Notes under the pieces: generated by a model
What the model was told of the DNA's origin: nothing
Database searches by the model: none
What the model saw: the letters and a program-made list of their open reading frames with translations, nothing else
Assembly: GCA_964366515.1 (NCBI GenBank)
Contig: CAYIUF010000002.1
Coordinates: 1 to 55,532, forward strand
Source of the DNA: an uncultured Gammaproteobacteria bacterium
Lineage (GTDB): Bacteria; Patescibacteriota; Microgenomatia; UBA8517; UBA10165
DNA: 55,532 bases
Direction: 5' to 3'
Shown: positions 28,540-29,263 of the stretch, piece after piece
Layout of the letters: each line of letters starts with the position of its first letter
How positions within the stretch are numbered: position 1 is the stretch's first letter
Translations under genes and position numbers: made by a program

Positions 28540-28644
28540 TTAGCCAGCGGCCGCGTATCTTCCTAAGGCGTAGAACAGCCACGCTGTTGCTAGCACACAG
28601 GAAGTCATGAAAAATGCGACAATGGCAACCTTTAATCGACTCAT
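28540..28644 (-). CDS. Unannotated 34-aa hydrophobic peptide (MSRLKVAIVAFFMTSCVLATAWLFYALGRYAAAG)
   Basis: Below the ORF-track size cutoff. AAAGGA lies 7 nt before the ATG at 28644, 13 nt after the upstream stop. One predicted TM helix. Resembles the peptide at 29168..29263 (M-x2-LKV start). Confidence 0.5.
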   Translation of the reverse strand: MSRLKVAIVAFFMTSCVLATAWLFYALGRYAAAG

Positions 28645-28656
28645 CTTTGGTTCCTT

Positions 28657-29007
28657 TCAGGCCTGTGCTTGGTACAAAGGCAAAGCTGCCCATGTGCGGA
28701 CTTGCACCATTCGTCGCTCTTCTTCTTCAGCTACCCTTGCCTCCATGGCATCCTTGGCCTTGAAGTATTCGCAGGTTGGGCAGGTGCAGTTTTCTTCGCC
28801 CCAACAGTCAATGGTCGAATTGTACTCGGGGTGCCTGTCCTCGTAGGACATCATCCAGTCATGGGCGTCAAACATTGATTGGGCTGAGAACCGTTTCTGT
28901 GCCAACTGGCACAGGGGACATAAGTCCAGTTCGAGTACTCAGGTGAAGGTGTGCTCGGCAGGGAACCTGCGCGTGCACTGACTGCACTGAACGGTTTTGG
29001 GCTCCAT
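28657..29007 (-). pseudogene. Cys-rich zinc-ribbon ORF (116 codons) interrupted by one in-frame TGA at 28941-28939
   Basis: AAGGAGG lies 5 nt before the ATG at 29007: MEPKTVQCSQCTRRFPAEHTFT-TGA-VLELDLCPLCQLAQKRF...CWGEENCTCPTC... The TGA splits a CxxC-x19-CxxC ribbon. The TTG start at 28905 in the ORF track has no SD. Confidence 0.5.
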
Positions 29008-29167
29008 CTTCTCCTCCTTGGTTTTTGATGTGCAAATTTGAAAACGACGATTCGTTTTCCTCTCAAAACCTGCAATTTTTGTAGATTTTGAGAGAGGCCG
29101 GGTAGAGATTGTCGTTGTGATGTTATCACATTGATTTTCTCCACCCGGCGGTTCATCATGCAGGACC
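29008..29167 (-). promoter_or_regulatory. Structured leader module, copy B
   Basis: 29022-29074 are nearly identical to 30108-30160. Palindrome GAAAACGACGATTCGTTTTC at 29040-29059. Stem CCTCTCAAAA(29059-29068)/TTTTGAGAGAGG(29086-29097). Outer CCGGGTAGAGA..TCTCCACCCGG encloses GTGAT-GTT-ATCAC. Confidence 0.5.
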
Positions 29168-29263
29168 CTAGATCAATCTTGCGATGAGCACACAGAGTAT
29201 GCCCACTGGAATGGCGATTGAAAGAAGGGAACAGGCGAACGAAACCTTTAAAAGTGCGTTCAT
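29168..29263 (-). CDS. Unannotated 31-aa hydrophobic peptide (MNALLKVSFACSLLSIAIPVGILCVLIARLI)
   Basis: GGAAGGAGG lies 5 nt before the ATG at 29263. The ATG overlaps the upstream TGA (ATGA). One TM helix. Confidence 0.55.
   Translation of the reverse strand: MNALLKVSFACSLLSIAIPVGILCVLIARLI

Follow-up and report, generated by a model that had tools for sequence, protein, structure and literature searches.

Two small open reading frames (ORFs), termed pep1 and pep2, in the window analysed here, a 55,532-nucleotide stretch of contig CAYIUF010000002.1 from a groundwater bacterium of the Patescibacteria (Candidate Phyla Radiation, CPR), are probably more than chance reading frames, especially pep1, as judged by signals intrinsic to the DNA. 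Both lie on the minus strand of an apparently inserted island, directly behind two larger genes, B and C, respectively, and each would encode a hydrophobic single-pass membrane peptide. As a small membrane-protein gene, pep1 is likely and the better of the two candidates, and pep2 is plausible. The explanation that we favour, with a confidence that is about even, is that pep1 and, with less certainty, pep2 represent real genes whose products are single-pass membrane peptides, and that both belong to a seven-cistron operon on this island.

29168 to 29263, minus strand: pep1, a candidate single-pass membrane peptide of 31 amino acids (aa), read from the ORF, the Shine-Dalgarno (SD) sequence, the ATGA overlap and the hydrophobicity
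28540 to 28644, minus strand: pep2, a candidate single-pass membrane peptide of 34 aa, read from the ORF, an AAGGA SD sequence 7 nt upstream and the hydrophobicity

The product of pep1 is MNALLKVSFACSLLSIAIPVGILCVLIARLI. Its start codon is preceded by the SD sequence GGAAGGAGG (29277-29269), which contains AGGAGG, and by a 5-nt spacer; the ATG (29263-29261) and the stop codon TGA of gene B (29262-29260) overlap within the tetranucleotide ATGA. A preliminary description of this stretch had already placed both small ORFs at exactly the positions found here on reading the sequence, and had noted the SD sequence and the ATGA overlap of pep1, which are confirmed. The combination of an AGGAGG SD sequence with ATGA is unique in the window. 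In four cases across the 55-kb window, an ORF of 100 aa or more is followed at its end by a small ORF with an SD sequence; of these four small ORFs, pep1 alone is hydrophobic. Its best 19-residue Kyte-Doolittle window reaches 2.60, and direct reading of the sequence bounds the hydrophobic core by K6 and R29. A derivation of pep1 from a frameshifted tail of B was rejected, since a comparison with its family shows B to be complete, and pep1 is thus not a shifted remnant of it. Translation of pep1 appears quite probable to us.

The product of pep2 is MSRLKVAIVAFFMTSCVLATAWLFYALGRYAAAG. As proposed in the preliminary description, an AAAGGA motif is found near the upstream stop (28657-28652); the gap between the upstream TGA and the ATG of pep2 amounts to 12 nt. 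The best 19-residue window of pep2 scores 2.19, and its hydrophobic core is bounded by K5 and R29, again by direct reading. The ORF shares the frame of gene C and starts four codons past the terminal TGA of C. Because the SD sequence of pep2 is weak and the gene upstream of it is broken by an in-frame TGA, a coupling between C and pep2 is doubtful, and we give the translation of pep2 an even chance.

The hydrophobicity of both peptides, measured as the best 19-residue Kyte-Doolittle window, was compared with that of ATG-initiated ORFs in shuffled island sequence and of 193 real small ATG-initiated ORFs. Values of at least 2.0 were reached by 0.4% of the ORFs in the shuffled island and by 6 of the 193 small ORFs of the real window (~3%), with pep1 and pep2 being among these six. 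Both products consist of a short N-terminus ending in Lys, 22-23 apolar residues and then Arg. As far as this can be judged from the residues, such a shape is that of a transmembrane (TM) helix, more than that of an oily stretch, and the earlier proposal of hydrophobic peptides with a single TM helix is supported by the two scores and by the 22-23-residue cores. The common beginning M-x-x-LKV that had been ascribed to both applies to pep2 (M-S-R-LKV) and is off by one residue in pep1 (M-N-A-L-LKV). Moreover, the codon-usage scores of pep1 and pep2 exceed those of 98-100% of the out-of-frame windows of the island genes. Neither peptide is present among 15 billion predicted proteins, and neither has been called by gene callers in any assembly on record that carries this DNA, so that both were correctly described as unannotated. 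The earlier argument that these are not chance ORFs holds as far as the intrinsic signals are concerned (TM-length cores, SD sequence, ATGA overlap), and fails in so far as it relied on a two-gene unit present twice (see below).

The remaining features of the island, in the order from the promoter to the last gene, are as follows.

30740 to 30768, minus strand: sigma-70-type promoter (TTGACA, 17 nt, TG-TACAAT), with 11 of 12 hexamer matches and an extended -10 element
30280 to 30696, minus strand: gene A, 138 aa, first cistron of the island, without relatives; a singleton cluster with no family match
30091 to 30279, minus strand: spacer IG1, with hairpins S1, S2 and S3, then UUUGCACAUCAAAAAC and the SD sequence of B
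29260 to 30090, minus strand: gene B, 276 aa, with an N-terminal domain without relatives and a C-terminal zinc ribbon of ~80 aa (VQFCPCGH ... KLDAPILSS..CPEC ... DWP)
29008 to 29167, minus strand: spacer IG2, with S1-S2-S3 and the leader, 92% identical to IG1 over 63 nt
28657 to 29007, minus strand: gene C, 116 codons, starting at an ATG that follows the conserved leader and interrupted at codon 23 by an in-frame TGA (28941-28939)
28328 to 28539, minus strand: spacer IG3, with a diverged S1-S2-S3 and a 44-nt element in the S2 loop
28025 to 28327, minus strand: gene D, 100 aa, without relatives (ORF reading; singleton cluster)
27552 to 28028, minus strand: gene E, 158 aa, without relatives (ORF reading; singleton cluster)

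All genes of the island are located on one strand, and their stop-start junctions are overlapping or close; the TTG start of gene E, for example, overlaps the TGA of gene D as TTGA. The site at 30768-30740 is the only strong sigma-70-type promoter of the island, and the next promoter-like site on the minus strand is at 27451. A promoter scan found no internal promoters in the leaders, where the best -10 candidate read by hand matches 3 of 6 positions. Presumably, the promoter at 30768-30740 drives the entire operon from A to E, in the order A, B, pep1, C, pep2, D, E, so that pep1 would be the third and pep2 the fifth cistron of one polycistronic mRNA. Ribosomes that end the translation of B at its UGA might restart at the overlapping AUG of pep1, aided by the AGGAGG 5 nt upstream, and initiation of pep2 would take place at an AAGGA site of its own, which is weaker. 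Each peptide would then insert into the membrane as a single helix, with Lys and Arg at the two ends of its 22-23 hydrophobic residues. The most economical guess about their role is that they represent small membrane partners or effectors of the soluble proteins of the island.

The island promoter sequence (window positions 30738-30778, GGCTTGACAAACTATGGGTTTTGTGGTACAAT) recurs on other contigs of the same metagenomes, where it is found before a different gene; at this other occurrence, the loose end reads AGGAGG..ATGAAACCAGTAAAG. At the other end of the operon, a domain of ~70 aa is duplicated in tandem within gene E (z = 9 in a shuffle test). The pattern of the duplicated domain is ..MSG..V.L.L....P..W.WN.E...HR.., and gene D contains a W-x-(Q/N) stretch faintly like gene E. 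Family scans with Pfam, PHROGs, NCBIfam, PADLOC and Rfam gave nothing significant; none of the island proteins matched in the first four of these collections, in line with the preliminary description, according to which the peptides match no family that could be named. Searches with tblastn using the zinc-ribbon domain of B, gene A and gene E against GenBank phages found no match, and neither did scans of viral contigs for E and the N-terminal domain of B.

The spacers before B, C and D align and fold into three common hairpins, which together constitute a module of ~150-210 nt with variable loop inserts. S1 has the arms CCGGG..GGAGA / UCUCU..CCCGG and a variable tip, S2 pairs CUCUCAAA with UUUGAGAG around a variable insert, and S3 reads GAAAACGA-AUCG-UCGUUUUC, followed by (U)UUGCACA.. 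and then by the SD sequence. The common leader that had been noticed before both upstream genes is thus genuine (63 nt, 92% identical), and the real repeat is larger, comprising the whole three-hairpin module in three copies. Several stem positions of the module form G-U on the minus (sense) strand and A-C on the other, which favours a structure at the level of the mRNA; covariation has low power here, because three module copies exist. In the consensus fold, the UCUCU of the S1 3' arm pairs with the downstream SD sequence. No copies of the module were found elsewhere in the window and no match was obtained in Rfam, and the module may represent a new structured RNA element. An integron attC site was rejected as an explanation, the R'' (RYYYAAC) and R' (GTTRRRY) motifs being absent from both strands of IG1-IG3; this test did not extend to an integrase.

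The position of the module relative to the stop codons is relevant for the two peptides. S1 begins 8 nt past the stop of gene A, 19 nt past that of pep1 and 13 nt past that of pep2; if the peptides are not counted, it would begin 111 nt past the stop of B and 130 nt past that of C. Straight after the UAA of pep2, the bases UCUCCU (28539-28534) are predicted to pair with the SD sequence of D (28338-28332), with a probability of ~0.85 and ~6.8 pairs in every context tested. Since these six bases after the stop are an anti-SD sequence, the termination of ribosomes at the UAA of pep2 may unmask the SD sequence of D, which we regard as a lead and not as a finding.

The S2 loop of IG3 harbors a 44-nt palindromic element (28443-28400) composed of GTATTAGC, two inner hairpins and GCTAATAC. 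The element occurs once in the window; in the source metagenomes it has ~10x the coverage of its flanks and at least six flanking contexts, and thus it behaves like a dispersed mini-repeat. In one Logan contig, it is followed by an apparent S3-like hairpin with altered stem bases and then by UAAAAGCACA, from which we conclude that related modules are present elsewhere in the groundwater community. Variants of the 44-nt element and of a second module copy gave 0 matches in viral contigs.

The preliminary description had placed each small ORF behind a Cys4 zinc-ribbon gene. This applies to B, which is a true Cys4 zinc-ribbon protein, and is not borne out for C, in which the pairs CSQC and CPLC are separated by an in-frame TGA. 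Among 1.84 billion representatives scanned with HMMER, 47 relatives of B were identified at E <= 1e-3 (best 5e-16). All of them match residues ~180-268 of B only, and residues ~190-268 share 40-55% identity with these 47 representatives. The family pattern is VQFCPCGH, ~22 residues, QL..I..G.KLDAPIL.S..C..C.E...RQDRL...DWP. In the family alignment the CxxC does not vary and the CPC hardly does; position by position, Q13, G18, C56 and C59 are invariant, and V12, C15, P16, C17, D47 and A48 are found in at least 90% of the members. Most members of the family are stand-alone proteins of 60-110 aa, to which B adds an N-terminal domain of 190 aa without relatives. In the window, the family domain corresponds to 29263-29529 (B residues 188-276), and the loci of the relatives are L082-L097 in our numbering.

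The AlphaFold2 model of the zinc-ribbon domain has a predicted local distance difference test score (pLDDT) of 93; the model of full-length B, made without an alignment, has a pLDDT of 38 and could not be used. No structural neighbour of the domain was found in PDB or BFVD at E <= 1e-3. Weak matches to the C-terminal domain of the Fur family (E >= 0.08, TM-score < 0.3) were rejected. Since sequence comparison with Pfam, PHROGs and PDB likewise gave no match for the family, it offers no functional lead, and the VQFCPCGH/KLDAPI group is a new, uncharacterised and confidently folding zinc-ribbon family. Its loci include a 430-kb viral contig, one locus with a DNA methyltransferase, several made up of small genes and one ordinary chromosomal locus. 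The contexts of the family are mostly phage-like, and the ribbon domain of B points to a phage-like origin.

The TGA of gene C (28941-28939) falls exactly between CSQC and CPLC, and further downstream a second Cys cluster, C-x6-C-x-C-x2-C, is present. Independent assemblies carry the same TGA, which was seen in Logan contigs from two runs as well as in one ENA contig. Gene C may represent a pseudogene or a split gene, or contain a site of read-through or recoding. An island with a recoded TGA (code 4 or 25) was rejected as unlikely, because TGA is the commonest stop of the host (20 of 40 long frames) and the genes A, B, D and E contain no in-frame TGA in ~670 codons. A perfect 7-bp hairpin (CTGTGCC-AGTT-GGCACAG) is located ~25 nt downstream of the TGA of gene C. 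The N-terminal CxxC...RF.A...CPxC of gene C (28942-29007) has weak tblastn matches (best E = 0.01) in L045, L046, L050, L040, L032, L047 and L012, at about position 8255-8390 in most of them. These fall at the same position inside the glycyl-tRNA synthetase (GlyRS) genes of several other bacteria, at a zinc-ribbon-like insert. The window's own GlyRS gene, glyS, which adjoins the island, is without the second Cys pair there, and the resemblance to gene C may be due to chance.

The zinc ribbon followed by a mini-peptide had been described as a two-gene unit that occurs twice, and this claim is not supported by our analysis. B and C are unrelated (BLASTP best E = 0.25), C does not belong to the zinc-ribbon family of B (hhalign probability 0.6%) and is broken by its TGA, and no similarity between pep1 and pep2 is detectable (shuffle z = 0.22). 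Since neither the peptides nor the proteins upstream of them are related to each other, the repeated arrangement is an architectural resemblance and not a duplication. The paired architecture is likewise absent from the relatives of B. Among the 47 related proteins, none carries a fused TM-like segment (top hydrophobicity score 1.49), and none of the ~10 informative distinct family loci has a coupled hydrophobic mini-ORF. In these loci, the zinc-ribbon gene is followed by a gene for a non-hydrophobic protein of 54-102 aa, often with an ATGA overlap, or by nothing; the single weak candidate for a mini-TM peptide lies uncoupled, 160 nt downstream, in locus L082. Within the island itself, the third, diverged copy of the leader precedes D-E, and no mini-ORF follows D. 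The association of a zinc ribbon with a mini-peptide is a trait of this island and not a conserved two-gene system.

Several observations speak against the favoured reading of pep1 and pep2 as translated genes of one operon. The codon-usage scores of both are under the in-frame mean, and each is equalled by another frame; the two peptides lack mutual similarity, as stated above; and gene calls are missing in all assemblies. In a population sample of four further contigs from Hainich and nine runs, each sequence shows two differences from the window at most, none of them inside the peptides, and no RNA-seq run holding the region was found. The SD sequence of pep2 is weak and follows a gene broken by TGA. 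With regard to the island as a whole, clustering at 90% identity left each of A, D and E as a singleton. When B was used as the query of a word-index protein search, no word-sharing relative came up apart from B itself; for C, this search yielded a 72-aa gene call on an identical contig, which is the window's own sequence, and nothing else. The leader, used as a DNA pattern, has 0 matches in genome, viral and metagenome collections. The anti-SD helix behind pep2 is found at one junction only, with a chance expectation of ~3% by our estimate, and the equivalent helix at IG2 (pep1/C) vanishes with added context.

Many of these points are shared with the view that pep1, pep2 or both occur by chance as ORFs in the untranslated spacers that separate a cistron from the following hairpin module, their hydrophobicity resulting from local base composition. 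ORFs of at least 25 aa are plentiful, 83 of them overlapping a 5-kb stretch; in addition, no conservation, variants or gene call were found, no RNA run contains the region, the peptides are mutually unrelated, their codon scores are intermediate and matched by other frames, and the SD sequence of pep2 is weak. However, two TM-length cores with basic flanks on the coding strand, each filling its gap, are rare both in shuffled and in real sequence at the frequencies given above, the AGGAGG and ATGA combination is unique in the window, and the stops of both peptides are as near to S1 as the stop of gene A. We consider chance ORFs an unlikely explanation. For pep2 there is, in addition, the possibility that it represents a C-terminal membrane anchor of C, the two forming one frame of 155 codons with TGAs at codon 23 and four codons before the Met of pep2. 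The protein would be either a tail-anchored zinc-ribbon protein decaying by nonsense mutations or one whose TGAs are read through. C and pep2 are indeed in one frame, separated by TGA-AAG-GAA-CCA-AAG; the in-frame TGA that splits CxxC...CxxC implies that C was once continuous or is read through, and it is fixed in all assemblies, next to which the weakness of pep2's own SD sequence has to be noted. A shared frame is, however, a one-in-three coincidence, and pep2 possesses an ATG with AAGGA 7 nt upstream. The use of TGA as the commonest host stop and its absence from the frames of A, B, D and E do not favour read-through, nor was any match to a selenocysteine-insertion element or other RNA family obtained. 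A membrane anchor of C is supported by no family match and appears improbable.

It is also conceivable that the small ORFs act by being translated, and not through their products: terminating ribosomes would remodel S1-S2-S3 and control the next gene, as in long-range coupling or in leader ORFs. Each module begins 8-19 nt past a stop codon, the UCUCCU after the UAA of pep2 is predicted to pair with the SD sequence of D, and in the consensus fold the UCUCU of the S1 3' arm pairs with the downstream SD sequence, all of which favours such a control. This explanation would not require TM-length cores with flanking charges, which leader ORFs do not need, and IG1 works behind an ordinary gene of 138 aa; the anti-SD sequence is robust at one junction only, and three copies afford little covariation power. 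We judge a purely regulatory role to be improbable as well. A broader interpretation, which is tentative and in our opinion rather unlikely, regards the island as an array of unrelated small genes, with an undescribed dispersed S1-S2-S3 plus AAGCACA leader that couples each of them to the preceding termination event; the peptides would then be components of cassettes, for example partners or effectors of phage-type zinc ribbons.

The window derives from a groundwater Patescibacteria (CPR) genome. The GlyRS encoded in it has at most 61% identity to any of 185,579 species representatives, with the top matches being Daviesbacteria and other CPR genomes, and contigs identical to the window are found in Hainich groundwater assemblies of well H43. 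The 3.3-kb stretch that holds pep1 and pep2 (~27530-30800) has the look of an inserted island: its GC content is 0.50-0.53, compared with ~0.40 in the flanks, and it is located between glyS and a gene for a 250-aa membrane protein (26656-27408). A weak relative of the latter is found immediately 3' of glyS in two Daviesbacteria loci, and in the window the two genes are kept apart by the island. Both island junctions are spanned by independent contigs, so that an assembly chimera was rejected. The island was probably acquired horizontally and is probably phage-derived. A second GC-rich stretch is found at ~18000-20400 (GC up to 0.505, with positive GC skew), in which several ORFs of 76-104 aa on the plus strand have TM-like segments and which is adjoined by a gene for an 860-aa DUF87/TrwB-like ATPase (20375-22957, minus strand). 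This stretch may be another foreign or membrane-apparatus segment.

Small membrane-toxin, holin-like or regulator-plus-effector pairs had been suggested as possible counterparts of pep1 and pep2, and for none of these did the analysis produce evidence: there is no family match, no endolysin gene and no antisense promoter. The type V system GhoS/GhoT of E. coli resembles the arrangement on the island in that the gene for a soluble protein is followed by that for a small hydrophobic membrane peptide in one operon, and a tight junction of adjacent, presumably co-transcribed genes is present here too (ATGA for B-pep1, a 12-nt gap for C-pep2). However, GhoT has 57 aa and two TM helices, whereas pep1 and pep2 have 31-34 aa and one predicted helix, match no toxin or antitoxin family and are not paired with the relatives of the B domain. 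Type I toxins (hok/mok, TisB, Fst, Ldr, Ibs) comprise 19-52 aa, with charged ends and a single TM helix; they possess their own promoter, a long structured 5' untranslated region and an antisense RNA, and translation of hok is coupled to the overlapping upstream frame mok. pep1 and pep2 are similar to them in being hydrophobic, shorter than 60 aa and predicted to form one TM helix, and mok-hok provides a precedent for coupling; they differ in being internal cistrons without a Pfam match. Compared with described toxin families in Pfam, NCBIfam, PHROG and PADLOC, the peptides gave no match at E <= 1, and no sigma-70-like site was found on the opposite strand in 27300-30900, other promoter types being outside that scan. 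Since neither an own promoter nor an antisense partner is seen, a type I toxin is argued against and disfavoured.

Holins usually reach ~60 aa or more and contain one or more TM helices, with charges in the C-terminal tail. With 31 and 34 aa, tails of 3 and 6 residues and no PHROG or Pfam match, the peptides do not fit phage holins; no island protein matches a lysis family in Pfam or PHROGs that might represent a neighbouring endolysin or spanin, and the small size together with the missing lysis gene disfavours this reading. A closer likeness in form is offered by CydX (37 aa, encoded after cydAB) and KdpF (29 aa), which bind the membrane complex encoded beside them. Like these, pep1 and pep2 are small, have a single predicted TM helix, lie tight against a neighbouring cistron and belong to the kind of genes routinely missed by annotation; unlike them, they have neighbours that are predicted to be soluble (B is without TM segment), and no sequence similarity is present. 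For the leader module only, an analogy is provided by the RNase III processing hairpins located between early genes of phage T7, where conserved structured elements also recur between unrelated cistrons on one transcript; the module differs in having three consecutive hairpins instead of one, and has no sequence or Rfam match.

Taken as a class, pep1 and pep2 are probably new members of a broad and known one, the unannotated small membrane proteins, which are systematically missed by annotation. The present value of the finding is modest and consists of a defined pair of candidates and a corrected gene map of the island, including a TGA-broken zinc-ribbon gene and a new zinc-ribbon family. To our knowledge, small membrane proteins are almost unstudied in the CPR/Patescibacteria, bacteria that cannot be grown alone, and we know of no such peptide characterised in this group so far. 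If translated, pep1 and pep2 would be part of a probably phage-derived island with seven products and a repeated RNA module without relatives, and they would represent early small-membrane-protein candidates from the CPR/Patescibacteria.

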